A DNA stretch of 64,000 nucleotides from Amphiscolops sp. MND2022 (Eukaryota): assembly GCA_964187785.1 (NCBI GenBank), contig OZ076409.1:58964001-59028000 (forward strand), read 5' to 3'. Under the pieces are notes generated by a model that worked only from the letters and a program-made list of their open reading frames with translations, searched no databases and was not told where the DNA came from. Positions 7,379-56,916 of the stretch are shown here, piece after piece. Position 1 is the first letter of the stretch, and each line of letters opens with the position of its first letter. Made by a program: the position numbers and the translations under genes.

Positions 7379-7648
7379 CCCAGCGATCGAAGACATGGTA
7401 CGCTTGACAAGACCCATGGAAGATCTTGCCAAGGATACCATGATTATGCAAGATCGATTATTTTTTCGATAAATAAAGGTTATGTCCGGAGTTATCACAA
7501 CGGCTTGTTCAGAAATTGGAGAGGACAAGAATCTTTTTCGAAAAGAATAAATTATTCAGCTCACACGTGTTACCATGGTTATCTTGCCATGATCTTGCCA
7601 AGATCTTGCCATGATCTTGGCAAGCGTAGCGTGTCTTCAATCGCTGGG
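7379..7648. mobile_element. MITE with CCC...GGG termini, 2-bp TSD (TT) and GATCTTGCCA subterminal repeats
   Basis: CCCAGCGATCGAAGACATGGTACGCTTGACAAGA matches the reverse complement of TCTTGGCAAGCGTAGCGTGTCTTCAATCGCTGGG with few mismatches; TT on both sides. Confidence 0.8.
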
Positions 7649-8501: not shown

Positions 8502-8631
8502 AGATTTTTCAATCTGATTCAAGAGATTAGATTTCTACGGTTCCAGCCCTTATGGTTAAAAACCTATAGGTTTTTAACCATAAGGGCTGGAACCGTAGAA
8601 ATCTAATCTCTTGAATCAGATTGAAAAATCT
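8502..8631. repeat. Perfect 130-bp palindrome with no spacer
   Basis: 65-bp arms centred on CCTA|TAGG (8566/8567). Confidence 0.95.
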
Positions 8632-9269: not shown

Positions 9270-11100
9270 CATCATGTTATGGTACGTATTTAATTTTTAT
9301 ACCTTCAGCAAGGTAAATATTTCGAGAAGGATATGTAGGAAGGTAAAGATAACACTAAGTACTTCAAGTACCTCACAGTATTGTTTAATGTCAATAAAAT
9401 TGTCCTTCGTCCCGTTGCCAACCAAATTAACTATTCTTAGCTGCTATGAAGCGACCACTTAACTTATTAATGCTATACGACCGCCGCGATCACCTAAAAC
9501 TTTGAATTTTAATCGGAAAGAAATGTTGACGTCGAATTTCTCGGCAACAATTGGATATAAAAACATAGGAAAAATTAAAACGAAATAAATGTTCCTACTT
9601 GACCTTACCACGTGTTGACTCAACTTTACAGAACTTTTGAAAACGAATTTCCATATAAATTGAACAAGAAGTCGCATTTACCTATGAACAGAATTGCAGT
9701 CAAGTTTTTGAGGGAGAAAACTTTCACATGTGTTTGAGAGTGGAAACTTCACAGTGAGCAGAAAAAGCACATAATGCAACTCCCCAACGTGTGTAAGAAA
9801 GCAAAAGGAAAAGATCCGAGAACGCGCCGTGACTGGCGCTACGCACAGCTAATACGAAAGCGGCCGCAGCACACTTTGGAATTATCCCCCCCTCTTGGTA
9901 CAAGTTAAAAATCGAAACGCAATTTCTCAAAGATGAAAAAGATATCAGCAAACGGTTTTCAGCATTCAACAGTCCGACCAAAGGAGAGCTTAAGTCGTAA
10001 ATATGAGCCCTGTGCAACAACGAGAACGTAACGTGGCTGGGGGAGGCTTTTAAAATAAGTTCTGTCAGAGTTTCGATGAATTTTCAAAAATGACTTTCTT
10101 CTGAAGTTTTTGTGTGATCGCTACAATTGTGAGTGAAAGTTCGGATTTGGAATAGCTTAAAGATGAATTGTCTATTTTGGGTTAATTGGAAAATGAATAA
10201 TATTCAGTAGTTCTGAGATCTGAGCCAGCAAACTTTAACAAGACGGGAACGTGCAAAGTCGGCGGTATATCTAAGGCTCAAAAAGCGCAAAGTTTTTAAA
10301 CCTGTAAAATGGGGACCCTTCGGACTTTTTGAAAATCCATTTTGTTGCAAATTCCTAAATGAATAAAAAGGGGGACCCTGTGGAGACAATAACAAACTTC
10401 AAATTTTTTTATTTTTTAAGAAAAAACGAAAAATGAGAACTTTGAACAGTCTCATAGTGCCGAAATACATAAAAGGGGATACCAATTGGGCTTTTTGGCA
10501 CTTTAGTTTGTTGCAAAATATCGGAGAAAAACTCGAAGGTGGGACACTTTGAAGGCAAAAAATCTAAAAAAAAGTCGCACAGTGCCGAAAAAAATGAAAG
10601 AGTCGCACAGTGCCGAATGAAATTGCTCGAAAAAATTTTCTGGCTAAAGCAAGGACTCGAGGCCCTGACCGCTGGGTTCACCGTAAACCGAGTACTGACG
10701 AGTACACCTGAACGAGTGAAGTCTGTAAGAAGTGGTACATACGCGATGAGATCTGTGGTCTGACGAAAAAAAAATAGAAAAAACACTAGCCAGTGTAATA
10801 GTCGGGCTTTTTCCCTGAAGAAACTGGCGCCGACCAAAAAAGACCCAAAAACTGCCACACAGCCGTTTTTCACATGTTATCGCCTAGTACTCCACATACA
10901 AGGGCACAATAGCAGCTCGTTTTGCAGCGTACTTGCGACATGAACTGAATGGGTTAAAAAAAGTAGTGAATAGAAAGCTGCGGTGCAGTAGAGAAAAACC
11001 CCCAAGAAACGAAATGTGTATTTTCATTCTGATAATAGGAAGATCAGCCTATAAAAACACTAATCCTGCACGTTTCGGGCGATATAGAGCTGAAATTTTA
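9270..11100. repeat. Dispersed repeat, inverted homologue of ~53140-54335, interrupted by the insertion at 10237-10836
   Basis: Shared blocks on opposite strands, e.g. GTACTTCAAGTACCTC, GAATTTCTCGGCAAC, CAGCATTC and TGTTATCGCCT. Confidence 0.8.
10237..10836 (-). mobile_element. Helentron-associated (DINE-1/HINE-like) non-autonomous element
   Basis: On the minus strand: 5' subTIR GTCGGCG with a nearby inverted CCGAC, and 3' CGCCGAC followed by CTTGTT. Inserted in a T-run with no visible TSD, judged from the empty site in the homologue at ~53395-53420. Internal GGGGACCCT/TTTGTTGCAAA repeats. Confidence 0.6.
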
Positions 11101-12273
11101 AGGGTAGACGCACGAGTGTATGATGCACAGCGTTTAGTGGAGCGTTTTTCCAAAAAGGCCCCCAAATTTCGTTCAGAAAAGATAAAGACCTCATCTAAAA
11201 TGCAAAAGACTCCTACTGGCGTGAGCTAGTGATGTATTAAGAGTTTTGCTAATGTCGTTATGATACTTTTGACTACGTTAGTTTTTCAGCGTTTTTCACC
11301 GTGAACGAGTTGAAATAGAAACAAAACTATGCCCAGCGTTTTTTTAGCCCTTTGATTGTCTTATTTTATATACTGTACTTAAATTTGGCCCCGATGATCA
11401 AAACACTAAGTTTTTGTCTTCAGAAAATGCAACTCGAAAATCGACAGTTTGGGATGTGAATTGAAATGGCTTTTTATGTCATTGTAAATTGTTGGGAACT
11501 ATTTCCTTCAGTCATATTTTGTTGAAGAGAGTTGTCAGGAGTCGTATAGGAAAAACGACTTGACAAAAGTGCAAATACCAATCATTGAGCCGACATTAAA
11601 GTCGAGTTTGTAAAAATGGGAAACATTGAGAAATTGAGTCAGTGATACCTCCCCTTAAATTTTATTGAAAACGAAGTAAAAACCACTAGTCATTATTGAC
11701 ACGAAGGTACAAAGAGGACCGACTAACGATGAGAAATTGTACTTCTGTTAAATTTTTAGTACATAAGTGGGAAAAACTGTATGACTCAACACTTAATGCG
11801 GCACTTAAAAAGGAATGCTGACAAATTACGAATACTTAAGTGATTAAACTGCCGAAAAATTAACTTTGGCCGAAGTGTGCGTCTTCACGACTACACAAAC
11901 AGTGAGTCCATTTCTAGAAGACGGTTTGCAGTTTTTACGGAGTCTTTACGTTCCGCATCACCAATTTATCAAATTTACAGATTCACTTTGATTTGCCGTG
12001 ATGCACGTGCTTTCTTCCAGAAGTTGCCCCTCAGATCGCCGATCCGCCATCTCTTAGTACTAATTTTGACCCAGCAGCAGGGTGTTCTTTGGTCTATCGT
12101 CTCTACATGTAATACAGGATCAGTTGCCCTCAAATTCACTGATTGCTTTCACTCCAAGACCGATAAAAAACAATTACAGAGAGTTGCTTTTTTCAATTTT
12201 ATACTGATATCACACCCCAAACAAATCAATTTTGCTCAAATCCTTGTTTCTTTATTGTTTGTGTTATATGCCT

Positions 12274-12717
12274 CATTACGATACATATGCCGCAAAAGTG
12301 GAATTTATCATCAAGTATAAAATGTATTTTTCTTAAAACGAGAGCGAACCGTACTCTAGTCAAACAGTGCATCGTGTTCATTGCGGATTATGATGCCCAG
12401 TGTAGTCAGAAATTGCGATTCGTGATCATTGAGCGTTATCAGAAAAGTTAAAACTAGTCAAAACAACTTAGTTTTAATGTAAATTTTCGGTAAACACCGT
12501 GAGTAAAATATGTGAAGTCGAAACCAGCCAAAGTACGTAATTATAGAGAGTGTAAAAGAGTCATTCACTGTATTTTGATCATTACGCGTGACGCCAAATC
12601 ATACTGTGTAACAAGCAAACCTCGTAACGCGTATCTGAAATACGAACGCGTTTTTATTGGCTGTTAATCGAAACTAACAAGATCTTGCTAGTGCGTTGCG
12701 GCATATGTGCCGTAATG
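12274..12717. mobile_element. Second copy (inverted) of the CATTACG MITE, 2-bp TSD CT
   Basis: CT|CATTACGATACATATGCCGCAA ... TTGCGGCATATGTGCCGTAATG|CT. Confidence 0.85.
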
Positions 12718-15139
12718 CTTCTATTAATCGTCTCACAATATTATAGTGTATTGATTGACTTTGAAACTGCTCTTTTCATTTTTGAAAGGTACCGCTAAAA
12801 ACAGCTGAAGAGTAGCGAGACAACCCCCGGAATATGGACAGATTACGAAGATCTTGATTTCCTTGTCACTTAGCCCCCCGTCTTGGATTGAGTTGATTCT
12901 TCTTTCTTTCGAAGTGAATGAAATTTTTTGTAGAATCTCAGTCAATTCTTGTCTCGCGCACGGGTTTTATTGAGTTGTAGTGGAGCTATTCTGAACAAAT
13001 AGTTAAAGCTACTGAAAACCAAAAGTCTTACAAACTTTATTAGGCATTATCTCAGAAACTACTGGTCAGAAGATAAACCTTCTCGGATCATTTTTGTAGC
13101 CGTGACACCGTTTAATTACTTTCATTTTCAACAATTTTCTTGAAAATTCTTCTTCAAAGAAGCAAGAGGCAAAAACGGCTAAAATACTTGTAACTTCGTC
13201 AAAACAATATTCTACGTAGGAAAAATTGACAATTTCGTGAATAATTTGTGAAGTAAATCCCCGAGGAGGGCAATTTCAGAAAAGATCTATAGTGAAGGTA
13301 CAAAGTTTGACTGTTTTGTTAAAATCAGCGGTTCTCAAAATTTTGTAGGATAAATTTCAAAAAAGCCATAAATTAGCGAAGACTTTTGTTAGCTACTAAC
13401 TTTTGTAGTTTTTGTGTGAGTTCAAAACAAACAGTACCCCTGTTATCTTGATTGAAATTTGAGAAGGTTTTGCTCCACAATGACTTTTGTGTCTATTTCA
13501 TTACGTACAAATTTACTGCGATTTGAGATTTGAAATGAAATGTTTTCAGCTTTTTGAACCCTAGTTCAAAGAGTTCAAAGTTATAACGTGGACTATTTTT
13601 CAAACGAATTGACCCAATCAATAAGTATTAAATTTGTGTCATCTTTTTATAAACTGTCGCTTTTTAACCAGGTTGACATTCTTTCTAGTATCTTGGAAAG
13701 ATCTTGCACAATTCCTACATCTTGGTGGCTATCTTACCAAGATCTTACTCAGATGCATCATTATTGGATCTACCAAGATAATTGAAAAATTCGAAGTCTC
13801 GCGGCCATATTCGATTTTTCCTCAACGTTTTGAAACATTTTTTGGCCTAGAAAATGGTCTTGTGTAGACTGTCACTGTGGAAATTATGTTTTGACTGACA
13901 AATTTCGGAAAAGGTGCTCTAAGTCACTATCTTTTGGAGTATTAATCTCAAATTATTCTCCTGTGGAAAAAGGACTGAAATCACTGAATCCCAAGGAATA
14001 AGATCAAGAATTACTAAATTCAATAGAGCAAGATAAAAAAAATTTCTATCCTGTGGAATAAGTTTTAAAATCACTGTACTCTGATGAACTTGTGACAGTT
14101 GGGGGATTTAGACTTCGATGGAAACTTAGTTGGGGATCGATGATAAAATTATTGTGCCAGATGAATTTTGACTATCAGATATTTTTCAAATTGTTTTATA
14201 TTTTCGATTATGTCATCATAGTTTACTGCGAAAGAAGATATGGTTCATCGACGCTTTTGATGCAGAGTGATACCAGTGGCGATGACAAGCGTTTGATTTG
14301 ATTGCAGAAGTTGTTTTGGAAGTTAACAGACACAGCTGCTTTAAAGGAAGATGGCAACATGTAGTCTTTCGTAGAGCAAAAAAATTGAAATGCTTAAGCG
14401 TCTGCATAAGCAAGCATTCGTAACGCCCTCTCAAACAGTTTTGAAAGAACCCACCTGAAGTCTTCGTGAAAACGATTGGACACCAAAAAAAAACGAAAAT
14501 ACCACAGCTGAAAAAATCCGAAGCGAGCTAGCTGTGAGCATACAATAGTTTTCCAACTTACTCCAGTTGGAAGTTTACCTATCAAGTGTTATTGGTTGAC
14601 TTACAGCTCAGTATTCCAGTGTTTTCCCCCCTTTTTCTAGTGATATTTAGACATTGTTCCCCTGTCTTCAGATCTTCTTATGGCGGTAAAATTGTTTTAT
14701 TCCAGTTATTTTAAACATTTGAGAGAAATTCAGGTTTACCATCCAATAATTTTCAATTTAATTGTTTGATGCCTTCTTTCTCCTTATCACGTAGTTCTTG
14801 CCAATGTTTTTTAAGCAATCTAGGTTTCTTAGATAATAAGATTTTTCTTACCATTGCAAAATGCCTAGCATGGCAAGATGTTAGCAAGACTGTTTAAAGA
14901 TATTGGCAAGATTTTCCCAAGATCCTAAGATATCCATGGAGGGTACGTAGTAACATGTGCAGCGACATCAAAGCCTGATGTAAGAGTTTTTCCCTTGATA
15001 TTCCGTCACCAGTTACACTTATCACAATACCCTCTAATCTGAAAAACTGAATTTTGTTTCTCCGAAAAAATTTCAACTCCCCCGGGAAAACTTTCCAATT
15101 TTCACTCCTAAAAATTATATCAGAAAAGAAAAAAACAGC

Positions 15140-17970: not shown

Positions 17971-18528
17971 GTCTGAACTAGGATTATCATACGTTTGTTT
18001 GATGCCAATTTTTGGGTTTTTTTACAAACCTGTGTGAATGTAACCAAATCGTGTCAAAGTTTAATTTTGGAGAAACATGGTGGAGTGACTTGGAGTAATT
18101 AGTCTGTTTTGGGGCAGACTAACAAATATGGAACAAAAATTCAACTTTGTTTGAAACAAAGAAATATTTGAAATAAATAAATATGAAACCCCTCTCATTA
18201 TGGTTTTTTGGAACGCAAATATCGAAACAATTCCAAAAACTGCGATGAAATATTGCTTTCTGCCTTCATCTTCTTGCCCAATGGAACTCACATTCTCATA
18301 TTTCACGGAAATGCTTACGGAAGACCGTCAAAGACTTGACATTTTTTATTTCTGTATGTTAATTCATCCAAGTTGATTAGAAGGTTTGAAAAACAGTGTT
18401 TTTTGTGTTTTAGTGTGAAAAATCGTGAATTTGGCTTGATTTTCGTGTTCTTAGCATGACATTTTCAGCGCGAGTTGTGCGAAAAAGTTGCGTGATTAGC
18501 TGACATGCCTGCCCAATACTCAAAGAAT

Positions 18529-19269
18529 TGTAACGACCCGCTAGCGACGCACATCTGGGAAGAGGGACAATGCCTAGTATGCTTAAACAGGAGACCGTTG
18601 TCTTACTACATCCCTAGACACTAATTTTTGTTCCCAAAATGGTCTCCAAGGGGGGCTATTCTTTCATCACAGGAGGCTCCTCTAGTTAGAGCTCCGAGGC
18701 GACGTGCCGGCACTCTCAAAGTCCGGACACGCCCCATAAGCCTGCAAAGAAACGAATCCTAGGTTCTTAACATACATTCCGGCCACCTCCTACATACTTC
18801 CGAGGTCCAAAAAAATATCTAACTGAAATACATTGTATTTGGGGAATTAGTTCTAAAATACAGATCTAGTAGATCAAACATTATTCAAATACTCTGTAAA
18901 CGGTGACAAAACACGGGGATAAGCCGCAATAACATTACAGTTTAGGGTCGGTCGTCAGTCTGGCTTCTGGTATCATTCCTCATCTTTGGGGCACAATGGT
19001 CTTATTTGCCCTTTTTTTGCCGAAACCCTGTCTTTTTCAGCTGGCACAATTCCTGATTCTCTCGCCTTCTGGGTGATGACATCTCGGACATTCACGTTCC
19101 TGGGTGGGGGTGGGGTCTTCTGATGTTGTTTTGCCTTGACTTTGCTTCTTCTACGGTTTTCTTACCTACCGGGTCGGCCATCATGAATGTGCTTGTTTGA
19201 TACCGCACATTTCGAATTTTTTATCGAAATTTTCAAAAACTTCTGCAACGTCGCTTGCCTGAAGTTACA
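18529..19269 (-). mobile_element. Solo LTR family B (741 bp), 3-bp flanking duplication AAT
   Basis: Reverse-complement homologue of the LTRs at 37804 and 42188; AAT|TGTAACG...GTTACA|AAT. Confidence 0.9.
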
Positions 19270-19461
19270 AATGATAGCGTACCGGTAGTGCGAACATTAG
19301 CAAAGCACTTGTAAACAAAATTGTTGCTGGTTTTACAAGTTATTCGTTTTCTTGATACTTTTGATAAGACTCTCACCAATATTTCTATAACGAATTTCAA
19401 GAGTTGTGTGTGAAGCAAGAATAAATAAGATCTTATCAAGGCTTTCAAGAGTAAACGGGAA

Positions 19462-20984: not shown

Positions 20985-21652
20985 GGGAATAAGTAAGAAT
21001 ATGCGAGATCTTGGCAACAGTTGCCAGATATATACCACTGGTAACAACTCAACAATTGGCAGTTTAGCCTACTTTTAAGAAGAGCTATTTGGAGTTTTCT
21101 GTAGTAAAGAACGTCAATCCTTGCATTTTTGCATGCAATTGGCTAACACTTTTTAATCTTTTCTGTGGTCGTTAGGTGAACAAGAAAAAATTAGCTACTT
21201 AATTCATTTTTGGAGAACCTAGATCAAAAACTGCCAAGTAATCAAAAAGGCCAATTTTCCAATTTTTGAAGTTGCGAGCGTTTCTGCTGGCGAGCGCCTT
21301 TCGGTTACGTTCACACTTTTTCAGATTTTGCAGTTGTCTAAGTAATTCAGCGCTGAAAATGTCCAAGTGCAGAGCGGGTGTCTTTTTTTCCAAAAAAATA
21401 AATCTAGCCCATTTTTAAATAGTTACCAAGGAACATTCGGATAATTTAATTTTCCAAGAAAGCTTTTAGCTCGAACTTTTTGTTTGTTTGAGCGAACTTT
21501 CTTGTCCAAATTTCTAAATTGACCATTAAAGATGTCTTTAATGGTCAATTTAAAAGTTTGACATTTAATTTGTCAATTTAAAAATATGCTCACGCAGTTT
21601 TCATTTTGCAGGAAGCTTTCTAGCTGGTTCAAATGTTTTTATTTTTTAATAG

Positions 21653-21849
21653 GAAACCTTGTGGTCGTGGCAGTTATCATAACAAACAAGGCGATGCACA
21701 ATACTCCCAATATCTACATAGCCAGTGTGGCCATCAGTGACTTTGCTTTCCTCACCGTCTGCGTCCCCCTGAATATCTACGTCACCTTGGCCACAGATGG
21801 GTGGCAGCTTGGGTCCTTCGTGTGTGCGGGTATGCAGTACCTGATGTAT
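21653..21849 (+). CDS. Class A peptide GPCR exon (TM1 end, TM2, ECL1, TM3 start)
   Basis: ttttttaatag acceptor, gtaagt donor; GNLVVVAVIITNKAMHNTPNIYIASVAISDFAFLTVCVP...WQLGSFVCAGMQYLMY (GN, D2.50, WxLG..C motifs). Confidence 0.92.
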
Positions 21850-22167
21850 GTAAGTACCTTTTCATGTCAGCAGTCAATGGGCTACGATAATCAAAGCTAA
21901 GAATCTGCTACTGTTTTGAGCCAATCTAAAACGCCCAGTGAACACTGTCCATTTTTCTGCCCACTGCCATCAAAATGATAGATAATCACACTTTCTATTG
22001 AAGTTCAAAAACAAGCTTTTTGTGCACTCATATTTTCAGAACATCAAATTGCTTGAGTTGAGAGCTTTTGGATAACATTTTAGTACATTTAGAAATTCTG
22101 CAAAATAGACCAATGAGAACATTTTGTTTCCCGTACTTTCTTTCTCAAATAGAATGAACAAAAGATT

Positions 22168-26915: not shown

Positions 26916-27951
26916 AATACAGGTTTAGCGTGCCTCTTATTCGCTTTACGATCGACCGCGGCGGCCAAAAAGAATAGCTCCTTCGAACAAATATTTAATA
27001 TTTGGTCGCAAGCCAAATACCGTAAAGGAAATAATAACCGACATACCAAAACACTGTTTACAAAATGACCAAACTCTGAAGCTCTCTCCAGAAGAATTTC
27101 CAAAGGACGATGTCTCCACGATCTTCCTACGAGATCGAACCCGAAATACAAAACTTGAAGGTCATTTCAAGAAAAAGCCAGGGGCTATCGTTGCGGAATC
27201 GAGCCACACCATCACAAGGGAGACAAACAGAGGACAAGTGCTTTCAAAGCGAGACCTTGCCAAAAACGAAAGCGCGTCGCACAGCATAAAAACTAGCACA
27301 AAAAGAGGAAACAGCCATTCATTGGAGAGAAAAGTAGCACCACTAAAAGACGCAGAAGAAAGGAGCGAAATGGAGTTAGACAAATCCTTAAATTTCTTTG
27401 CAGCAAAAGATTACAAAACACGCCAAAACGAAACCGCTTTCCTAGAAGACAGATAAAACCGAGAAAATCCTTGGCGGGCCTACCAGACAATGACCCACCA
27501 AGAAATTGATGAATGGGTTAACAATTAGAAATCATCAGAGTCTGAACCTGAAAGAAAAATTACCATCATTAAATTTGAAACTGAACATAAACTCATACAG
27601 TATATTTAATAATAGTGTCTGTAAACATTCTCCTTTACAATCTTTTGGGCGGTAGCTTTAACCCCACCCAAACATTTCTGTTGGTATTATTTCTACTGTA
27701 ATGTTAATTACAGGCAAATAGTACGAACTTTATTCCGTAGTGAGGCAGGTGTGGCCGAAGCCATTGGCCAAGGTAAAAAACAAAATAGAACGATGCTAAA
27801 ATTTAATTGATAAACATAGTTAAACGTTTGATAAAGTACCTGTTTCATACGTCGTCCAAACAACACAAATGAAAAACAATGCAGCAAGTTGCATACTACA
27901 GTCGATTCGATGAATTCAATTTTTCTTAGCTCAGTGTTTTTGACTACAACA
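26916..27951 (+). mobile_element. Gypsy integrase C-terminus plus LTR end, direct repeat of 32138-33174
   Basis: About 1 kb of high-identity direct repeat ending CTACAACA, immediately followed by PBS-like TGGCGCTGCGAGC. Confidence 0.85.
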
Positions 27952-28476
27952 TGGCGCTGCGAGCTTTTGATCCTGACGTTGGAAAAACCAAAAATAGGGA
28001 TCAGCAGTAGCTGGTTTGGCGCTGTATTGGAATGACCCTCACCAAAATCCAAGCATCGAACGGAAGAAATGGTGCGATTTGTTCGCTGTGGCGATGACTG
28101 CTATATATTCAATCTCTATCGCAGAGGTACTGAGGACTGTGACAAATGAGGCTGATCGAAATAAAACCTTATTGAATAATGTTGATCATCCAGTAGCAGA
28201 GCGTAAGTGAGTCAGTGTACTTTATTGATCTCTGGGGGTTGCGGCACGGAAGTTCTTTACCGACAATTATCCAACAGTCAAAATCTCCGAAACAACACCA
28301 CAAGTATTACTGGATAATTGCAAGAGTACATTCGATACAAAACAGAATAGGACATTAGATCGTTTCAGACTAATGTCCAGAAAATAAATGCCGTCAGAGA
28401 CATTGGAACTGTTCTGGCACTCATTGAACGGAAAGGCCTCAGAATGCGATCTTGGGGCTCAAACTGACAGCCTCGT

Positions 28477-28801
28477 CATTACGATACACATGCCGGTACG
28501 AACTAGCAGGATCCTGCTAGTTCGATTTTTGTCCAATCAGAGCGCGAATATTTTTTTTGGAAGTTTTACACTTTTCTCACATTACGCGCATTGATAGGCC
28601 GTTACACTCGTTGATTTTGCTACGTACGTTGACTAGTTACACTAGTTGCCTACGCCCCGTCACTGGCGTAATGTGCCCTCTTTGTAATTGCAACCCGCAA
28701 TTGCAACATCCAAATCATCTTTCGGGGATGCTTTCGGTAGTGTACGTAGTTTCTCTTGTACAGTCAAATTGTTCATATTGTGGATGAAAATATCGTGTAC
28801 G
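28477..28801. mobile_element. CATTACG-family MITE remnant plus inverted duplication inserted in gag, flanked by GT duplication
   Basis: gag reads CTC GT|insert|GTA CAC GAT (L V H D); the insert starts CATTACGATACACATGCCG. Confidence 0.7.
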
Positions 28802-28940
28802 GTACACGATATTTTCATCCACAATATGAACAATTTGACTGTACAAGAGAAACTACGTACACTACCGAAAGCATCCCCGAAAGATGATTTGGATGTTGCA
28901 ATTGCGGGTTGCAATTACAAAGAGGGCACATTACGCCAGT
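28662..28940. repeat. Perfect palindrome, 139-bp arms with a 1-nt spacer
   Basis: Centre GTGTAC-G-GTACAC at 28801; identical ORFs on both strands in the ORF track. Confidence 0.95.
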
Positions 28941-31900
28941 AATCGTACGGAGAAACCAAAGTTTCGATAAAGAGGGAACGAAAAAGAAGGACTGTTTACG
29001 TTCTGGAAAAGAAGAAAGTTTTCAATAGAGCACCTGAAAGTATGCCCCGCAAAAGGCAAGAAATTCAACAAATGTAGAGTTTTGGGTCACTCTGGTCGTG
29101 TGTGCCGAAAACAGTAAAAACCACAAACTTCGCAGAAACAACCACCGTGACGAGTGAATTGGGTTGATGAGGAAAAAGACAATAATTACGAACAAGAACA
29201 AGAAAAACAATACGTTTTTGGCATCGATGGTGGTGGATCATCACCATAAATGATGAAATTTAAAATTAATGGAAAGAAAATTTCCTAATGATAGATTCGG
29301 GATCACCAGTGAAAATATTAAATCGAGAAGACTACAAAAAATATTGAAGTACCAAGTCTTGTTTGCACCCGCCTACCAAAGGACGAAAAATACGTAGATT
29401 ATAGCAAGAAGACAGTAAATATACTGGGATACAACTATTGTGAATTGTAGGTTGGCGGCAAATACAAAAAAGCGAGAATCTTGGTGGCACGACCGGGAGC
29501 AAAGTCAAATGTCGGCAGAGATTGGTTGAACTATTTACAATATCGCATCCATCCAAAAAGTAAAAAAAGTAGGATTCCCATTTCATCAATTTGTATAACT
29601 AAAACATTGCCACTAGGTCCATATGTAAACGAAATGCAAGCGGAATTTCCCGACCTGTTTGTTAGAAAGGGTAGAATAAAGTACTATTCCATGAAGGAAT
29701 GGTAATGAAACAACAGAAGTGCCGCCGCGTACCGTTCCAACTACAAGAGTCCGTAAAAAAGGGAAATAAATCAGCTATTGCAAGAAGGCCACATTGTTAA
29801 AGTACAAGACATCAAAGTGCATGTCTTCTTACAGCCCACAGTGGTTATGATTACCGTCGAGAAAGATCGGAGCGTCAAAATAGCCCTGGTTGCAAGGGAA
29901 CTGATAAAAAATGTTGTTAAAGATAAATACCCGATGCCGAGTCTTGACAATCTAATGGACATGATTGCAAAAACATGTGGAATAAGGATCAGGCAAGACC
30001 TTTTTCACCTCACTGGATTTGACGTATGCATACGGACCAGTAGAACTTAGCGAAGCCACGTCACCACGTCAAATAACCAGGGGCGTGCGACAGGAATATA
30101 CATATTCATAACAGGGTTCTACGGTCTCACAACCTTGGCTACGGAATTTCAAAGAATATTGGAATTAATATTGGCACGTATTAATCACAAATACATTTGC
30201 TTTTATAGATGATATTTATCAATTCTCACACATGGAATAGAAGATGAACACATCAAGAAAGTAAAGGATATATTGGAAAGACTCGACGAAGCAATCATAA
30301 TTTTGAAACTAGAAAAGTGCGCCTTCGCGGCGGAAAATATTGAGTTGGTCGGATATAAACTGTCACAGCAAGGCGTAGCGCGAATCAATAGTAAAGTACA
30401 AGGAATCCCTGAAAGACTGGAACCAACAATTTTAAAACATTAAAACAACTCTGATCGTTCCTGGCGCCGTTAACCAATTTGACAAATTCATCCCCAACTT
30501 AGCACAGCTGTGCTTTCCGTTCCGAAATTTGATAAAGAAGGATTACGAAAAGAATTGGGGTGGAGAACAGAAAAAGGAATTCAAAACAGTAAACGAAGAA
30601 ATTGAAAAACCAACCATGCTGAATCTCTTCAAACAACAATGCACTTTGAGGATCATTTGCGATGCAAGCAAATCTGGGCTGGGAGCTGTATTACAGCAAA
30701 AATAAAACAAAGGATGGAAACCCATTTCTTCCGCATCACGCTTTTTGACTGAATTAGAATCAAAATATTCCATAAATGAACTTGAATTACTTGCTATAGT
30801 ATCGTCAGCTACGTGTACGGAGTCCCATTCAAAATAACATCAGACCATAAAGCCTTAGCAACAGTGTTAAAGGGATAAGAAGCGAATCAAACATTTTCTA
30901 GCAGACTCACACGGTGGGTAGATCGCCTATTACCCTTTGACTTTGAGGTAATACACGGACCAAGTAGAACATTGGGCACAGCTAATTTTTTGTCTCGAAA
31001 GCCATCACCGATAAACGAAAGTTCCGTAAAATCAAGTACATTATGGGATGAATGGTTCACTGTAATTGTTGTTTCAGAATTAACAAAATCACTTCCTACT
31101 AATCAGACGTCAATCAGCGGCGGCCGTCAGCCAATGAAAAACGAGAGCGATGCGAATGAGAATTTAGCCAACGAAGGTGTGAACGAACCTGACGATACGC
31201 AATCAATAGAGCAAACAGTTAAAGACGCACTCAGCGAACAAACTGCCATGTCAAACAAGCGCGATTGAAGCGAGGCAAGCAAACTGCATGAAATTTCAAT
31301 TAAACCACCGGTCAAGAGACCTCCAACGATCGCATTATTAGACAAAACCTCGACAATTCCCCTCAAATCCAGCATGCAACGGATTGGAGAAAACATCCTG
31401 GCAGGGACGTACGAACACGGCCCACTACTACACTATTACAATCAATTATCGACATTCTAAAACATCACAACCAACAGTCGATAAACAAACTCCCGAAAGT
31501 CTGGCCACAGAGGTTCAACGAATTACGAATGGACGAACACGATTTCATTTCAGTGATGAGAAAATAGGCATCCCAGAAAAGCTCAGAAAACCCATTTTCA
31601 GAAGTTTTCACTGAGGTCATTCAGGACGTGACTCAATGCTACAAGCAGTAGCAGACATTTGGTGGCCACGGATTCACCGTGATATCGTCTCACTGGCACA
31701 GTCCTGCCCAATATGTCGACAAGCAGGTAAAAATTTAAAAACTTTAAAACTATCGGAAGTTGGAAACCTGCCCGCGGTGGATGCTCATAACGACGAATTA
31801 ATAATAGACTTCGGTGGACCTATTCAACTAGCACAAAAAATTAAGAATTACCTACTACTGTCCATAGATCCTAAAACCAATTGGCCGAACGCAGCGTTTG

Positions 31901-34648
31901 TAGCAAAACCTACCGTTGAACGAATCGTAATTTTTCTAAACGCACACATCGCACAATTTGCTGTTCCAAAATGAATTCGCATCGACTCCGCGGCGAAGTG
32001 TTTAAACAATTTTGCCAAGAACATTTCATTCATGATATCGAATTTTTGACCACCGCGGGAATAGCGAAAAAGAACGGTTAATTAGAACCATCAATGAGAG
32101 ATTAAGGTCCGATAAAACAATTATCACCGAAAAAGGAAATACAGGTTTAGCGCGCCTCTTATTCGCTTTACAACCGACCGCGGCGGCCAATAAGAATAGC
32201 CCCTTCGAACAAATATTTGGTCGCAAGCCAAATACCGTAAAGGAAATAATAACCGACATACCAAAACACTGTTTAGAAAATGACCAAACTCTGGAGCTCT
32301 TTCCAGAGAAATTTCCAAAGGACGATGACTCCACGATCTTCCTACGAGGTCGAACCCGAAATACAAAACTTGAAGTCCAATTCAAGAAAAAGCCAGGGGC
32401 TATCGTTGCCGAATCGAGCCACACCATCACAAGGGAGACAAACAGAGGACGACAAGTGCTATCAAAACGAGACCTTGCCAAAAATAAAAGCGCGTCGCAC
32501 AGCCCAAAAACTAGCACAAAAATAGGAAACAGCCATTCATTGGAGAGAAAAGTAGCAGCACTAAAAGACGCAGAAGAAAGGAGCGAAATGGAGTTAGACA
32601 AACCACTAAATTTCTTTGCAGCAAAAGATTACAAAACACGCATCCCACCAAAACGAAACCGCTTTCCTAGAAAACAGATAAAACCGAGAAAATCCTTGGC
32701 GGGCCTACCAGACAAGGACCCATCAAGAAATTGATGAATGGGTTAACAATTAGAAATCATCAGATTCTGAAACTGAAAGAAAAATTACCATCATTAAATC
32801 TGAAACTGAACATAAACTCATACAGTATTTTTAATAATAGTGTCTGTAAACATTCTCCTTTACAATCTTTTGGGCGGTAGCTTTAACCCCACCCAAACAT
32901 TTCTGTTGGTATTATTTCTACTGTAATCTTAATTACAATTAAATAGTACGAACTTTATCCCGTATTGAGGCAGGTGTGGCCGAGGCCATTGGCCAAGGTC
33001 AAAAACAAAAAAGAACGATGCTAACATTTAATTGATAAACATTGTGAAACATTTATTAAAGTACCTGTTTATACGTCGTCGAAACGACACAAATGAAAAA
33101 CATTTCAGTAAGTTGCCTTTACATACTACAGTCGATTCGATCAATTCAATAGCTCAGTGTTTTTGACTACAAGAATGCCTTTTAGGCTCCCTAAACGTTT
33201 TTTTTGCGAACCGAAAAGTTCACAAAACTCGTTCATTTTGTTGATTATAGATTTTTTCTTGGTGTATCTTCTTCCTTTTCCTTCCGCACGCGTTAAATTA
33301 TTGCTAATATTGAAACAAAATTCAAAACTCAGTAGCCGGTTTTATGAGTTATTTTTATCAAAAAAAATGGTCTCAAAAAGTGCTTTGAATTTTACTAAAA
33401 TTAATTGGATAAACGTTCAGTTTTTAAAATGAGTGGGTAAACTTTCAGTTTTAAAATGTGTGGGACTTGGCGAAGGAAAAAGAACTAGTTTTCCAATTAG
33501 GAAAAAAAGGACTTAAATCAACATTTTATGTCGAGTCGACACTTTTAGGCAAATTAGATTTTTATTTTAATTGGATAGAGTTCTTACATAACGCTTGAAC
33601 TATTCAGCTAATTAACAAGTTGACTAAGCAAATTAAATTCATCTTTTTGAATCGTAATTTGCAGTTTTTTCTCAGTTTGAAGAGTCTTAAGTCAAGGAAC
33701 TTTTCAATGCACAACTGACCAACTTTAATCAGAAACTAGATTGAAGTCTCTTTCCAAACGTTTGTTCTAAAATAAAAATTTCTCGATCAAAATTGTGGTT
33801 ACATGTCAGAATAACTAAAGTACCATTCCGTTAATGTTTTCGATAAGTTTTTGCTATTTCGAAACGCTTCGAGCTTTGCGTATTTCCTAATTTCGGTACT
33901 TTCCTAATTGTTTGCAAGAAAGTTTACTGCAAAAATATGGGCGGAAAATACCGATTCATTGAATCTCGAACACTCTCAGAAAGTCTTTTGAAGTCAACTT
34001 GTTGAATCAGATTCATGACGCCTTTTTTCTATAAAACAAAGTTTGGTTCCATTTACATACTCTCTTTTTTAGACGTGAAACGACAAATTCCAGTTCACCG
34101 TGTCTGTATTTCATTGGTGTATAAGAGCATCACGTTCACCAAAAAAATTTAAACGATGGTCTTTTTCATGCGTTTTTATCCATGATCATCCATTGCATGA
34201 TGGCGTTTCATCAATAATCATTCATGAATCATGGATATCTTACTATGATTATGGAATGATTCTCGCCATTGCGAACCCATGAATCAGGGAAAAATCATGG
34301 CCTGTAAATTTGGGAGAATTATGTAAGTTAGCACTTTGTAATTTTAAGTTAGAAAAATCTAAAATAAATTTTTTGAATCTGTGTATCTCATCTAGTTAGC
34401 TATTTCATTGCTAATCTCTGTTGTTACTTCATTGCTAATCTACTGTGCTTCCTCATGAATAGATAAACAAACGTGTCACTCAAAGATTAGAAAGAGCTTG
34501 TCTCAATAATAGACATAAACAAAAAACTGCAATGACGTGATCGTACGATATCTGAAAACCAAAACCGCTGACTTCTCAACGAGAAACTTTTCAGCTAATT
34601 GCATTAAGGTTTGATCAACAGGTCTCATTCGAAAAATTCCTCAAACCC

Positions 34649-37803: not shown

Positions 37804-40800
37804 TGTAACGTCAGGCAAAAGACATTGCAGAAGTTTTTGAAAATTTCGATCAAAAATTCGAAATGTGCGACATCAAACAAGCACATTCAAGATGGCCGAC
37901 CCAGCAGGTACGAAAACCGTAGAGGAAGCAAAATAAAGGCAAAACACCACCAGAAGATCCCACCCCACCACCCAGGAACGAGAATGTCCGAGATGTCATC
38001 ACCCAGAAGGCGTGAGAATCAGGAATTCTGCCACCTGACAGCAAAAAGACAGGGTTTTGGCAGAAAAGTGCCAAATGAGACCATTGTGCCCCGAAGATGA
38101 GGAATGATGCCAGAGGCAGGAAGCCGATGATCGCCACCGAAATGTAACTGTATACTTTATTGGGGCCTATCCCCACCTGTTTTGACTGTTTATAGCGTAT
38201 TTGGATAATGTTTGACCTACTAGGTCCTCATTTTAGTCCTTATTCACTCATATAATGTATTTCAGTTAGACACCTTTTTGGACCTCGGAAGTATGTAGGA
38301 GATAGCAGGAACGCATTAGGAACCTAGGATACGTTTTTACAGGCTTGTGGGGCGTGTCCGGACTTTGAGAGTGCCGGCACGTCGCTTCGGAGCTCTAACT
38401 AGAGAAGCCTCCTTAGACGTTAGAAAAGTCCCCCTTGGAGACCATTTTGGGATCAAAAACTAGTGTCTAGGTATGTAAGAAGACAACGGTCTCCTGTTTG
38501 AGCATCCTAGGCATTGTCCCTCTTCCTAGATGTGCGTCGCTAGCCGGTCGTTACATCTGGAATAGTTTTTATGGCGACCACAGAGGGATATTTTTCATAT
38601 TGCGTACAGGTAGGAGCAACTTCTGCTTTCCGGCCCCGAAGGGTCCAGATCTAGGAAAACGTTTTGGGAGGGTCCTAGATTATTTTTATAGCATTTTTCT
38701 GGCCCTCTGGGCTTTGTACTAGTGTTATTCCTGCGTTTTCCCCGTGTTTCTGAGGTCTACTTAGAGAAATTAACCGTTCTTAACAGTGTACCCCCTTTTT
38801 CCTCACTAAAACCTAATAAAAAAGCTTATCCGGCCTATCCGGAACGTGTTTTAAAGGGTTTTCTAGCTTATTTTCAGCTAATTTGCAATGTATGGGGACA
38901 GAGAGGACGAGCGCCGAAGGTTCCCACCAGCTGTGATGACGTGGTGACGTCCTACACAACCATTCCTCCCACGCCCCTGTGATTGCAGTACATCACGTCA
39001 GACGGGTGAAATCGTCTTTTTTCTTAATTTAACGGCCCAAAAAGAGTATTCCCAGGCCTACCACCATTATAACTAACTGAGAAAAATACCCATAGGGTAT
39101 TCCGATCAGTTGTTAAAAAATTTGAGCTCAAAAACCTCGAAAATAACGTTAGTTATAGCTCAATTACCGAAATTTTCAATTTTGAAAATAAATATTTCAT
39201 CAAACAGAGTAAGGCCAGTGGGAATACTAAAAAAACGTTCCAACAGACCCCCTGGGTCAGGAACAAAAAACTTTGCAGGGCCATTTTTCCAAAAATAGCG
39301 AAAAATTAAGCAATTTCTGTTAAAAAATCGTCAAATTTGGCCATTTTGACCCAACTTGACGAGGGCTAAGCCTTGGACACTAGCTCCCAAGCTTCTGAAT
39401 CAGCCCAAAAAACTTTTCCCCCAACTTGGTAGCACGAAACACTACTACCAAGTTGTTTTTTAAGGCCCCCCAATAGAAATTGAAACTTTAATAACTTGTT
39501 TCTTTTGATATACATAGATCTGAGCAGAGGACCCCATAGACCTGAGCGATATAACACCAAAAATAATAATTGAACGAACCCCAACCCCTTAAAATAAGTT
39601 GTCACACTCTCCCACAGTACTATTGGAACAATCCCAAACGCCCAAGAACCGATAAATAAAAATTTCTTGGTGAAAACACGTTATTTCAGTATTGTTCCGA
39701 GAGTGTAAAAAGTGCAACTTGAAAAATTTTTGATAGACCCTATTTGGAACCTACCAGGTTTCGCTTGCTTATTTTCTGTTAGTATATACCGTAACGTTAC
39801 AAACGCAGAAAACCGCGAGTGATTCCAACCAGTGGTTGTCGAGAAATAGCCGAAAACGCGTTATTTTTGCGACATTTTGGGAACCATATAGTAGTGCTTC
39901 CAGCACAAGCCGAAATCTCTCCTAGTAGGAGCAGCCTCAAACGGATTGCACCATTGTGTAGACCATAAAAAGTTACGTTAGTGGTGTAATTTTCGTAGCG
40001 CTAGCACTACTAGTGATTGAGAAATCTTAGCCGCAGTTTTGCTCAAAAATCGTGTGAAAATGTCGAAAAATTCGAATTTTAGTTGAGCATTGTGCAATAC
40101 CTCGCAGGTATCCCAACACTAAAATTCTTGCATTTTTGTGCACACGGCACTGGATCACGACGATTTGTGCAATTTGAGCAGCCGGCTACTAGCCAAAGCT
40201 GAGAAATTGACATTTTTGTGATTTTTGACCCGAAAAAGTGGTACCTCTGGTACATCAAGGTTTTGTCACTTCATATCGCCAGATGTTGATCAAGGCACCT
40301 CGCCGCTCTGTTTTTCTGTTACGTAGGCAAAAGTTACGCTCGCATGCAAAATTTCAGGTGGCTGAGACGCCTCGAAGGCGAATTTGACCACTTTTTGTGA
40401 ATTCCACGACATAGTCAATTTTTCAGTGAACATTGTTAAGTGGCCGTGACACCCACAGGTTCAATTTTGACCCAATCGGAGTATCATTCCCCACGATTCA
40501 GCCACTGTATTAGACGGTGTGAAGTTTTCAGATCGCTAGCAGCGCTAGAAGTGATTTTCACCTTCCCCGGAGGTGCATGTTGACAAGAAAATTGTTGATT
40601 TTGGACATTTTTGCAAAAAATCACATAATTTTTCTCAGACTACGTGCCAGTGAGGGCCAAGACGACCCAATTAGCATACCGAGCGCCCTCAGGACGTCTT
40701 CTTGAATCACTTTGATTAGTGCTAGGCTGACCCTAAGATGTCGGGTCTCTGAGAAAACCGGTCTGCGAGACATAGAGGTGAAAAACCGAAAATGGAAATT

Positions 40801-42939
40801 CGCTTCCTGACTGCTATCAAAGTCACCCAAGTGCAATCTATCCATTGCGAACATGCATGCGCGACGCTTTTTGAACCCCGTGGGTGCAAGAGCACGTTTA
40901 TAGGCACTTTTAGAGGTTCAGACTTTGAACGCAGTGCGTCTCAAAACAGAACAACAAGTACACTGGTGACTGCCATAGTGGAAAAAGAACGCTTTTTCTG
41001 ACCGTACTACGATCGTAAGGCAAGAAACTACTTCAAACTCAGTGTCTCTCCTCCTACTCACCCCAAGGTCTACCCGTAGTCCCTATTTACATTTTGGCTA
41101 TCACTTGTGCTCTCCAGAAACATGGCAACATGAGTGACAAGCGGACATTTCAGACAATCTAACATCTGTAGCCAAGCAGGCTTCTCAAAAAATTAGTCTT
41201 CGCTGCTCAATTCATGCCTAAGGTGTACCTTGGTGCTCGGTACCACAGTTGCGTGAACCATGTCGATGTGAAAACACCGGACAAGAGATTGGCCCGGGGA
41301 GTACCCATACTCTCCCGAGAGAAGTCAACACCAAGCATGATGAAACACCTAGAGCTTCGAAGCTCTGAGAACTGCTTGGCCAGCGGCCGTGCTTTTAGAA
41401 CCCGAATGATTGCTCTGGAACTTGTTTTTAATGCCGAAGACTGTTTTCATGATCTATCATGCCTGATTTTTGACTTTTATTGGTTCTGCTCTATCATCGT
41501 TAGTGACATTGTCCCCTCTTGAGAAGTAGTTTGTTTCCATCTCTTGCATATACGCTGGTGCTTGTACTACCTAGACAATAACTTTAACTGGGCGTACATT
41601 GCGGACACAATAGATTGAATAGTTCCTCATTTTTAGTGATATTTTTGATTTTTTGAGGCCTGTTTCACCATTAGTGCTAGTTATTGTGCAGTTTCTGTTG
41701 GCCCTGAACTACGACACTTTTGCAAGACCAACGACACTTTTGCAAGACCACAGCTGTTACTTTCATTTTTCGCTTTTCAAGTGCTATCGTGCATTTTGTA
41801 AAACCTAACCTATCAGGTGGGCCCCTGGCCAGTGCCAAACCTGTTGTGATGAGTGCTTTTTATGCAGATGCAATAAGGTGCTAAAAATTTTGAAATTTTG
41901 GTGCGAAATTAAAAGTTTGAAATTGTTTTGAATATAAAGCTAAGTGTCTAAAGTTGCTAATATTTTTCCAGTGCAAGAACCCGTTGTTGGTGTGGAATCG
42001 AAGGAAGCCTGCTAGGCTGGCAAAAACTCATGTTTTTGGGCAATAACGTGTTTTTGGGCAATGACTTCCATGTAGATTCCTGACGTACCATGTTGCAACA
42101 GTATCACTGGATCACTGGATGGTGGCAACCAAGATGTGAACGTCCTCTCTCGTTTGTCGAGGACGACAAACTACGGCCCGGGGAGGATGTAACGTCAGGC
42201 AAAAGACGTTGCAGAAGTTTTTGAAAATTTCGATCAAAAATTCGAAATGTGCGACATCAAACAAGCACATTCAAGATGGCCGACCCAGCAGGTACGAAAA
42301 CCGTAGAGGAAGCAAAATAAAGGCAAAACACCACCAGAAGATCCCACCCAACCACCCAGGAACGAGAATGTCCGAGATGTCATCACCCAGAAGGCGTGAG
42401 AATCAGGAATTCTGCCACCTGACAGCAAAAAGACAGGGTTTTGGCAGAAAAGTGCCAAATGAGACCATTGTGCCCCGAAGATGAGGAATGATGCCAGAGG
42501 CTGGAAGCCGATGATCGCCACCGAAATGTAACTGTATACTTTATTGGGGCCTATCCCCACCTGTTTTGACTGTTTATAGCGTATTTGGATAATGTTTGAC
42601 CTACTAGGTCCTCATTTTAGTCCTTATTCACTCATATAATGTATTTCAGTTAGACACCTTTTTGGACCTCGGAAGTATGTAGGAGATAGCAGGAACGCAT
42701 TAGGAACCTAGGATACGTTTTTACAGGCTTGTGGGGCGTGTCCGGACTTTGAGAGTGCCGGCACGTCGCTTCGGAGCTCTAACTAGAGAAGCCTCCTTAG
42801 ACGTTAGAAAAGTCCCCCTTGGAGACCATTTTGGGATCAAAAACTAGTGTCTAGGTATGTAGTAAGACAACGGTCTCCTGTTTAAGCATCCTAGGCATTG
42901 TCCCTCTTCCTAGATGTGCGTCGCTAGCCGGTCGTTACA
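37804..42939 (+). mobile_element. Young non-autonomous two-LTR retroelement (LARD-like), family B
   Basis: 752-bp LTRs at 37804-38555 and 42188-42939 differing at about 6 positions; PBS at 38572; PPT GGGGAGGA before 42188; no ORF longer than ~100 aa in the 3.6 kb interior; ATT on both flanks. Confidence 0.93.
38572..38589 (+). other. Primer binding site, tRNA-Arg-like
   Basis: TGGCGACCACAGAGGGAT resembles the complement of a tRNA-Arg 3' end (recalled as TGGCGACCACGAAGGGAT); it lies 16 nt downstream of the 5' LTR. Confidence 0.6.
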
Positions 42940-46850: not shown

Positions 46851-47501
46851 CCCAGGTTGACCATCATGGCTAATTCATGGATATTCATCTATGATCATGG
46901 ATTTTTCAACACATTACATACTTATTCATGGAAAAACATCGATGATCCATGTCAGAGTGAGGCTTCATAGATTTTCTTCCATGATTGTCATCCATGATTC
47001 ATCCATGATTTGCGATGTTGAAAAACTCGTTCAAATGTTCGAATTAGGCAAAATTTTTTGTGCGCGTCGGTTCTCATAAAACTGAGGTTTATTTGACTTG
47101 TTTGTTTCGAAAGATGTCAAACCCCATGATATCCGCTTAATTTGTGCTCTTCTAGGCGTTTTCATCATTTTTGAGGGTATTTTCGTAATTTATCAATCCA
47201 AAAACTAGATTTTATGGTATTATTTTTTAAATAAGTCATCTAATCTGGTGTATCCAGTTCAACGTCCAGTTCAAAAACTGGGACTTCGCATTAATTTGCA
47301 TCGATGATCATCCTCGGCGTCAGGGATTAAATCCATGAATCATGGGTTTCCATCCATGAAGCATGGGTTTCCATCCATGAATCATCCATGAATCATGGAT
47401 ATCTTTCCAAGATCATGGAATGATTCATGACATGCCGATCCATGAATCATGGATGAATCATGGATGAATATCCATGAATTAGCCATGATGGTTAACCTGG
47501 G
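46851..47501. mobile_element. MITE with ~39-bp TIRs (CCCAGGTT.ACCATCATGGCTAATTCATGGATATTCATC), 2-bp TSD AA and CATGAAT/CATGGAT repeats
   Basis: TIRs visible at both ends; a related partial copy lies at ~34160-34313. Confidence 0.88.
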
Positions 47502-51048: not shown

Positions 51049-51769
51049 CCTAGTGAGAAAACCCTCTGAGTGTGAAATTTTTTACTGGAACATGGACTAT
51101 TTGTGGAAACCTTGGTAAGAATCTTCACAAGATTCTTTTCGAGAGGGGCAAAAATTATAATGATCCTGCAAGGCCTTGCCAAGATTTTCGAAGGAAAAGC
51201 TAACAATAAAAACCCATCCCAACAGTAAGATTTTTAGTTTTCCAGTAGCTTTAACTATTTGTTGAGAATAGCCCAACTGCAGCTCAATTAAACCCTTGGG
51301 CATGCAGGCCGAGTATCTCCATACATTTTTATTTACTCCGAAGAATTAACTACGAATCAACCTAATCGCAGACGGTGGGGGTAAGTGTGACAAGGAAATC
51401 AAGGTCTTCATAACTTTGCAATCTTGCCCTCTTTCGAGTTTGTCTCACAACTCTTTAGCTGTTTTAGGGGGTCTTTTCACAGGTGAAAAGAAGCGGTTTG
51501 AAAATTAATTAATACACATCAAATAAATGAGGCGAATAAAAGCCACGAACACAATTCCACAACCACGAATAAAAGAATGAATAATAAGATAACACCGATC
51601 ATAGCGAAGAATAGTACGGGTTATATGAGGAGGCATATAACACAAGGAAACAAAAAACAGGGGTTTCAACAAGGTTTGGTTGTGTATCCGTGAGGATGCG
51701 AGTGATATCCAAAATATGGAAAGAAGTAACTCGCAGCAAAATCTCTATCGGTCTTGGAGTGGGAGCAAA

Positions 51770-52053
51770 TCCGTGTATTCTAGAGCCACTTAACCCGTTC
51801 CGTGTATTAGAAGGACACTTAACCTTTTCCGTGTAATCTAGGGCCACTTAACCCGTTCAGTGTCTTAGAAGGCCACTTAACCTTTTCCGTGTATTCTAAG
51901 GCCACAGCTTGTTCCGTGAATTCTGATGCCATTTAGCCTGTTCCGTGTATTAGAGGGCCACTTAACCTTTTCCGTGTATTCTAAGGCCGAGCCTGTTCCA
52001 TGAATTCTGATGCCATTTAGCCTGTTCCGCGTATTAGAGTGCCACTTAACCCG
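51770..52053. repeat. ~29-bp minisatellite, about 10 units (TTCCGTGTATTAGAAGGCCACTTAACCYK)
   Basis: Contiguous tandem units with alternating variants. Confidence 0.9.
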
Positions 52054-53139
52054 TATTACATGTGATACGACAGAGCAGCTGTCAACCCTGCTACCGGGTC
52101 GAAATTCGTACTAGGGTATGGCGGAGTAGCAACAACTCTGGCAGCTTCATGTTGTTAGGCTGAGGGCACTGGCTAAACGGCCAATCGAAGTAAATCCGCA
52201 GTTTCGATAATCCGGTGCCTGATCCGGTATGCTATGGGACGCAAAGAACTACACCGTTCTCTTGATTTCAACTCACTTTGTGTGTGGCAAAAACTGCGCA
52301 CACTTCGGCCAAAGTTACTTTTTCAGCGGTTTAGTCATTTCATTATTCTTTTTTTGCCATCTTTCTTTTTTTGTCAGAAGTACACGTTCTCATCCTGACC
52401 TGGTTCCACCTTCTTGTCAATCATGACTAGTGGTTTTACTTCGTTTTCAATAGAATTTAAAGGGAGTTATCACTGACTCAATTTTTTCCCCTTTTGCAAC
52501 CACGACTTCAACTTCAGTTCTTTGATTGACATTTGCGTTTTTTGTCAGGTCACTTTTTCTCACACGACTCCTGAGAACACTCTTCAGCAGAATATGGCTG
52601 AAGGAAAAACGTTCTCAACAATTTACAATGACCTAAATGGCGAGTTTAATTCACATTACATTCCAAAAAGTCAATTTTTGAGATTCACATTCGAAAAGCA
52701 AAAACTAAATTATCAGATTACGGGGGCTAGAATCAAGTATATCATTCAACAGTACTTTTAAAGGGCTACAAAGGTACACTCATAATCAACATTGTTTGTT
52801 GACTCCTTCATGGTGAAAAACGCCCTTGAAATTTGGTAGTCAAAAATGACATATCCTAATTTGGGAAAAGCTCAATTTTAGAAGGCTCGAACTCTTGAAA
52901 GACACAGCGTGGGGGATTTTATACATCGGTAGCCCAAGCCATTAGAAGTATTTGGCGCTTTAGATGAGGTCTCTGTTTTGTTTGAACAAAATTTGGTAGC
53001 ACTTTTTTCTGGAAACTACCGTTTTTCGAATTTTGATGACCTGACCTTCAACTTCAGAGGTCAATATCTCAAAACGAGGTCATTTTCCGGATACACGCTG
53101 CCACTAAACGCTACAAGCTAGACTCTTGTGCGTCAAGCC

Positions 53140-56692: not shown

Positions 56693-56916
56693 AAAGTCAG
56701 AAAAACCATACTTCGAACGTTTTTTCTTCACAATTTTGCAATGAAACTGGGTTGTTTCTGTATGTGGGAAGATCCAAAGATTTGAATAACAAAACTATTA
56801 GCTATAGCTAATAGTTTTGTTATTCAAATCTTTGGATCTTCCCACATACAGAAACAACCCAGTTTCAATGCAAAATTGTGAAGAAAAAAGGTTCGAAGTA
56901 TGGTTTTTCTGACTTT
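56693..56916. repeat. Near-perfect 224-bp palindrome (112-bp arms, 2 mismatches, no spacer)
   Basis: Centre AGCTA|TAGCT at 56804/56805. Confidence 0.95.

Follow-up and report, generated by a model that had tools for sequence, protein, structure and literature searches.

Within the window, by which we mean the whole 64,000-nucleotide stretch of DNA analysed here, a decayed LTR retroelement carries in its gag region an insert that joins the left part of a MITE to an inverted copy of the gag sequence next to it (Table 1). The window is animal DNA, as indicated by a rhodopsin-family GPCR exon at 21562-21900 (7tm_1, E 1.4e-16). By the order of its domains between direct repeats, the host element is consistent with a Ty3/gypsy element, although the same order is found in BEL/Pao; in Pfam searches Integrase_H2C2 scored above the cut-off, RVT_1 and the protease (the latter via homologue P0001) scored below it, and Rfam gave no matches in the 26-34 kb interval. 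Its direct repeats (26916-27949 and 32138-33172) take in the 3' end of pol besides an LTR-like part, so that they look more like a tandem unit than like simple LTRs.

Other repeats are scattered through the window. A 750-bp family is present at 37804-38555, 42188-42939, 18526-19272 and 57402-57725, with two copies 99.2% identical and 4.4 kb apart, like a young LTR pair, and further TIR-bounded elements with many short subterminal repeats occupy 46862-47490 and 7381-7646. The stretch 59000-64000 is GC-richer (45-47%) and holds minus-strand ORF pieces of 113-218 aa, three of which were scanned against Pfam with no match.

The junction of the two gag pieces was examined with 25 homologous proteins (2 + 23), of which 11 matched both pieces and the other 14 did not. 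In all 11, 0 residues separate the left piece, which ends at 28474, from the right piece, which starts at 28802. Because the pieces abut, the 325 bp at 28477-28801 are foreign and the two GTs (28475-76 and 28802-03) are duplicates of each other, in agreement with a preliminary description of this DNA that saw gag split at a GT duplication. Since both GT copies occupy codon positions 1-2, the G at 28801 could conceivably be native gag and part of an extra valine codon, a reading ruled out by the 0 intervening residues in the same 11 homologues.

Table 1. Features of the gag locus, the MITE family and the long palindromes in the 64-kb window.
Feature	Position	Strand	Details	Basis
Full MITE copy M1	3853-4303	+	451 bp; flanks TTT/TTT	Repeat and flank comparison
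Palindrome	8502-8631		65-nt arms, perfect, no spacer; axis CCTA/TAGG; TATA just outside left arm; alternatively a 76-nt arm that has lost 6 bp	
Full MITE copy M2	12274-12717	-	444 bp; flanks AAG/AGG in element orientation	Repeat and flank comparison
Decayed host LTR retroelement	26916-33172	+	Direct repeats 91.8% identical	Gag, protease, RT and integrase fragments in order
Decayed gag, piece left of insert	28229-28476	+	Internal stop at 28385-87	Gag homologues
Left target-site copy	28474-28476	+	GT (28475-76) if 2-bp TSD, CGT if 3-bp	Flank comparison, gag homologues
Left part of diverged CA..TG MITE	28477-28661	+	Remainder, including right TIR, missing	Profile and pairwise matches
Left TIR of inserted MITE	28477-28498	+	Begins CATTACG	18/19 first nt equal to family right TIR
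Internal hairpin of MITE left end	28499-28524	.	13 bp, perfect; imperfect in M1 and M2	Palindrome scan
Five subterminal repeat units CGTTACnnnCGTTG	28580-28671	+	Starts at 28580, 28600, 28618, 28635 and 28658; the fifth spans the outer joint	
Probable microhomology, fifth repeat unit/arm end	28662-28669	+	2 to about 8-10 nt	Predicted
Extra arm	28662-28800	-	Inverted copy of 28802-28940; long P-nucleotide-like tract	Palindrome and repeat scan
Centre G	28801	+	1 nt	Complement of C at 28474 (3-bp TSD reading); also equal to MITE terminal base (2-bp TSD reading)
Native arm	28802-28940	+	Gag resuming from right target-site copy; contains heptamer CATTACG at 28929-35	Gag homologues
Palindrome	56693-56916		112-nt arms, 2 mismatches, no spacer; axis GCTA/TAGC; TATA at outer left joint	

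The MITE family and the truncated insert

Two full copies of the MITE, M1 and M2, are found in the window; they are 77.6% identical and have TIRs of ~22 bp that start with CATTACG. The TSD is exact at 2 bp in both copies and exact at 3 bp in one of them, the other differing by one transition, so that the two copies give only a rough likelihood ratio of ~1.9 in favour of 2 bp (M1 0.32, M2 5.9). In a paralogous repeat of the M2 site (51.2-52.4 kb), 88 bp separate the two flank matches. M2 itself sits inside the first copy of a ~3-kb repeat that is present twice in opposite orientation with 67-73% identity (9274-13031 and 51225-54335).

Positions 1-131 of the MITE profile match 28477-28624 (E 5e-12), a match to the left end only, and positions 1-172 of the insert match 3853-4007 in M1 (E 6.7e-10); the first ~175-190 bp of the 325-bp insert correspond to the MITE left end. 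Identity to the family is 84% over the first 51 nt and weaker beyond. Judged from its sequence, the insert is a diverged sister subfamily of the M1/M2 MITE.

M1 and M2 have 5'-CA..TG-3' termini with TIRs and a TSD within 2-5 bp, and the family likely belongs to the CMCT clade, which comprises EnSpm/CACTA, Mirage, Chapaev, Transib, Plavaka and ESTA and is characterised by CA..TG ends and 2-5 bp TSDs (PMC12730594). The non-autonomous CMCT elements described there share with the present family the CA..TG termini, a 2-3 bp TSD and subterminal repeats; they differ in the tip, which is CACTA or CAC there and CATTACG in this MITE. The TSD of 2-3 bp disagrees with the 8 bp (or 5-8 bp) of the hAT superfamily. 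Within the 64-kb window we saw no transposase of the MITE's family, such as the DDE enzyme with C(2)C and H(3-4)H motifs expected of an autonomous CMCT partner, and no other element with these ends. A search of metagenome contigs with the exact 20-nt left-end pattern returned one match, in bacterial-looking coding DNA with no wider likeness, which we take to be chance, and the 22-nt TIR had no match in viral contigs.

The right TIR of the inserted MITE is lost: at the outer joint nothing matches it beyond a 7-bp tip (7 of 22 bases). One could take the insert to start with a complete 197-bp MITE variant (28477-28673), having that 7-bp tip as its right TIR and followed by a flipped 127-bp spacer, and the segment does begin with CATTACG and finish with CGTAATG. 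Such a variant would, however, hold only those 7 TIR bases of the 22, the five additional bases that match gag would be a coincidence of about 1 in 1000, and no such short copy was found within the window, which leaves this variant very improbable in our view.

The palindrome, its axis and its outer joint

The palindrome scan of the 64-kb assembly window found arms of 139 nt at 28662-28800 and 28802-28940 that are 100% complementary and have a single nucleotide (G, 28801) between them, compared with a longest arm of 7-10 nt across 20 base-shuffled windows. The predicted fold of the region is the expected long stem (-207 kcal/mol) and adds no further evidence. The palindrome is genuine in the assembly, and the earlier statement that the insert consists of the left part of a MITE and a perfect inverted copy of the following 139 bp of gag holds on both counts. 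Both arms carry a short tandem duplication in gag (28891-28914, three residues more than in the homologues), which makes the palindrome younger than that lesion. The arms are identical inside a host element whose own repeats differ by 8%, for which the chance would be 0.918^139 = 7e-6 if all were equally old; the palindrome event is therefore young, or the arms have been homogenised. Lying in dead repeat DNA, the palindrome at this single locus is taken for a scar; we propose no function for it and no effect on a working gene.

Perfectly identical arms within an 8%-decayed element, together with the presence of three long palindromes in 64 kb, are also what an assembly or library artefact might leave, either as an inverted chimera of whole-genome amplification or as a fold-back read. 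An artefact would nevertheless have to make two switches, one at most 1 nt from the TSD and the other within a repeat unit of the MITE, and restore collinear gag, and a 1-nt turn is atypical of polymerase chimeras. The 2 mismatches between the arms of the palindrome at 56.8 kb argue that such palindromes are genomic, since at least that one looks aged. We consider an artefactual origin improbable.

The axis had been described as lying exactly at the insertion junction. It does lie within 1 nt of the right TSD, although it is not flush, having a 1-nt centre: position 28801 is at the junction of element and flank, and the right TSD copy begins at 28802, as expected for the footprint of a flank hairpin. 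We compared five cleavage geometries with the observed 17 nt around the axis. Nicks made by RAG and Transib are flush, and the resulting hairpin yields an even palindrome without a centre base; models of this type fail under both a 2-bp and a 3-bp TSD, and the Transib/RAG-type hairpin invoked earlier is not supported, as it does not produce the observed centre with either TSD length. The Hermes/Ac offset combined with a 2-bp TSD also fails. Two offset-hairpin models match the 17 nt exactly, and only when read as a 3' overhang: in (a) the TSD is 3 bp and the first nick falls in the flank, 1 nt from its border with the element, so that the centre is the complement of the element-adjacent base; in (b) the TSD is 2 bp and the first nick falls in the element, 1 nt from its end. 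We know of no hairpinning transposase that cuts as in (b). Because the models fit only with the hairpin strand as the bottom strand, the opening nick would have been on the top strand and would have turned the hairpin into a 3' overhang. Palindromes in Ac/Ds footprints centre on the complement of the base beside the element (PMC5873905), a rule that holds at 28801 with a 3-bp TSD and fails with a 2-bp TSD, and hairpin-capped flanks are left by Hermes and Kat1 (PMC4763223). By itself the centre G is weak, as it would fit by chance about 1 in 4-5 times and allows two readings.

The axis at the TSD, the lack of a loop and the fitting centre base are together a product that is hard to get by polymerase fold-back. 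Fold-back starts from an existing stem, and its product carries a loop of several bases, yet the centre here is 1 nt. A template switch in replication, or fold-back priming, in which a fork or broken end halted at the MITE right end, copied 139 nt of flank in reverse and returned to the MITE left part by microhomology, would predict the same layout of deletion, inverted duplication and outer-joint microhomology with no transposase hairpin. Palindromic duplication by fold-back is moreover a known repair error (PMC5795780). Against such a switch, the turn and the return both fall at most 1 nt from the TSD, and priming on short self-complementary words at the junction would by our reasoning, rather than by computation, give different axes. 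We rate this origin as unlikely.

At the outer joint, the first four bases of the fifth CGTTACnnnCGTTG unit belong to the element, and AC-nnn-CGT is added in register by the end of the arm. The 8-mer pattern with AC-nnn-CGT occurs at 22 of the 64,000 window positions, a comparison made post hoc. Units related to CGTTACnnnCGTTG are found in M1 and M2 as well, one M2 unit being CGTCACG-CGTAATG. On this post hoc comparison of sequences, the most likely annealing site of the overhang is a subterminal repeat inside the MITE that resembles the TIR.

The heptamer CGTAATG/CATTACG, which the preliminary description placed at the outer end of the arm and equated with the TIR tip, is present at 28667-73 and 28929-35, but 5 nt inside the arm end, and the copy at 28929-35 is native gag coding sequence (T-L-R), found also in homologues P0001 and P0002. 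The chance of finding it is 4e-4 for its position 12 nt from the arm end and 0.017 for anywhere in the arm. Joining through this heptamer does not agree with the joint itself: the right TIR would have survived and is absent, and the joint lies in an internal subterminal repeat unit. Annealing at a TIR-like repeat would explain why the heptamer is near the arm end, and makes the TIR tip needless. That a copy of the TIR-tip heptamer should by chance lie only 12 nt from the arm end is improbable, which also speaks for alternative transposition (reversed-end or sister-chromatid) with gag 28929-35 as a cryptic end, or for local re-insertion of the right end, and alternative transposition yields inverted duplications in maize (bioRxiv 10.1101/2020.01.07.897926). 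It predicts, however, that the outer joint has an intact 22-bp right TIR and a new TSD. Both are absent, and the arm extends 12 nt beyond the cryptic cut point; of the origins weighed here, we give this one the least credence.

A repair scenario and its counterparts in known systems

We suggest that the palindrome is probably a repair scar of DNA-transposon cleavage, produced through a hairpin on the flank, opening of that hairpin far from its tip and joining by microhomology. The state from which it started, a CMCT-like MITE in a dead gag with a 2-3 bp TSD, can be seen in the layout, the TSD, the element kinship and the axis geometry; each chemical step that follows we infer from these. A transposase acting in trans would have cut the right end of the MITE, leaving the flank closed by a hairpin whose tip has one unpaired base, as the axis suggests. 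The hairpin would then have been opened away from the tip by a top-strand nick 139 nt off (28940/28941), and unwinding would have left a 140-nt 3' overhang. The nicked top strand would be the 5'-terminated strand, the kind nicked by Mre11-type resection, which may be the source of the 139-nt arm; in yeast, MRX-Sae2 makes its cuts on the 5' strand in steps of ~100 nt and next to nucleosomes (PMC5795780). The overhang would have annealed by short microhomology to the fifth subterminal repeat in the MITE left part, and fill-in would have fixed the palindrome with the loss of the rest of the MITE. The earlier proposal of a hairpinned flank that was reopened and rejoined through microhomology thus fits the centre base, the absence of a loop and the place of the axis, and needs correction in its choice of the TIR-tip heptamer as the microhomology.

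Two routes could account for the left part of the MITE: (i) it may never have been excised, a one-ended cut having been followed by resection, or (ii) the element may have been fully excised, after which gap repair on the sister chromatid restored its left part before being aborted, a process known for P and Ac elements. The same product is expected from both, and we consider them about evenly balanced; single-end cleavage, which had been assumed earlier, is accordingly not a required step.

The scar works like a hairpin footprint of Ac or Tam3, although it is neither from a hAT element nor a flush RAG/Transib joint. In V(D)J coding joints, as with Transib, the flank hairpin is opened off-centre and P tracts are normally a few nt; the off-centre opening is shared with the present locus, whereas the even palindrome of a flush nick is not matched by the 1-nt centre. 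Long inverted duplications derived from the flank are already known at hairpinning transposons of plants. In the niv-525 allele of Antirrhinum, Coen and Carpenter in 1988 reportedly described an inverted flank duplication of ~200 bp after Tam3 excision, from which the hairpin model is said to have originated. That allele resembles the scar in its long inverted duplication of the flank with the axis at the transposon site, and differs in that a plant hAT element was reportedly fully excised, while here a CMCT-like MITE has kept its left part.

Footprints of Ac/Ds (hAT; PMC5873905) follow the same centre rule (if the TSD is 3 bp) and show microhomology at the joint, which is probable here too. 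Their P tracts reach at most 20 nt in budding yeast and 3 nt in Candida, as opposed to the arm of 139 nt here, which moreover belongs to an animal, has half an element retained and a TSD of 2-3 bp, not 8 bp. In ET500 (PMC1978519), a 598-bp inverted repeat of donor flank is likewise tied to one end of a hairpinning transposon, Ds, and accounted for by a hairpin joined through microhomology; that insertion has kept its TIR, and its repeat travelled with Ds to a new site inside the TSD, whereas here the TIR is lost and the flank is local.

What sets the present single case apart is that it comes from an animal, involves a CMCT-like MITE of which half has been kept, and has an arm as long as 139 nt. 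Hairpinning of the flank by CACTA-type transposases, which the preliminary description listed as known, was not found stated in the literature searched; it is an inference from footprints and shared motifs, and to our knowledge the cleavage mode of CACTA/CMC-type elements has been inferred, not shown. No report of long P-type palindromes at animal DNA-transposon ends, or of CACTA cleavage chemistry, was found in the open-licence PMC and bioRxiv literature (main texts, with older plant papers mostly outside its range).

Further palindromes in the window

Among the six palindromes of the window with a score of 13 or more, three have arms longer than 60 nt: the one at 28662-28940 and two at 8502-8631 and 56693-56916. 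The chance of both of the latter having a TA/TA axis is about 0.004 (TA frequency 0.063), calculated post hoc. No element remnant, TSD pair or arm paralogue was found for either within the window, none of the 10 ORFs around them reached the Pfam cut-off, and the one ORF tested in Atlas gave no usable match. A 91-aa minus-strand open frame traverses the right arm of 56693-56916.

These TA-axis palindromes cut both ways. Being free of remnants, they suggest that a general palindrome-making process may act in the window, which would lend weight to the template switch weighed above; equally, they may be further scars like 28662-28940, as both match what could be expected from full excision of an element with a TA TSD and flush flank hairpins.

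Returning to the proposed scar of transposon cleavage, it is conceivable, though we regard it as doubtful, that this animal routinely opens transposase hairpins 65-140 nt from the tip, resulting in dense giant P-nucleotide palindromes (three in 64 kb) whose centre bases would be a record of cleavage chemistry, with an Ac/Hermes-like offset in a CMCT-like family, unlike its flush Transib/RAG relatives. Taken as a single locus, the scar is a natural example of a known process. If the genome were indeed full of such scars, their centre bases would give the nick geometry for each transposon family; the germline would be capable of opening a hairpin at roughly one nucleosome length from its tip, and transposon excision would be a steady source of perfect palindromes of 100 bp, the raw material for hairpin RNAs and for instability.
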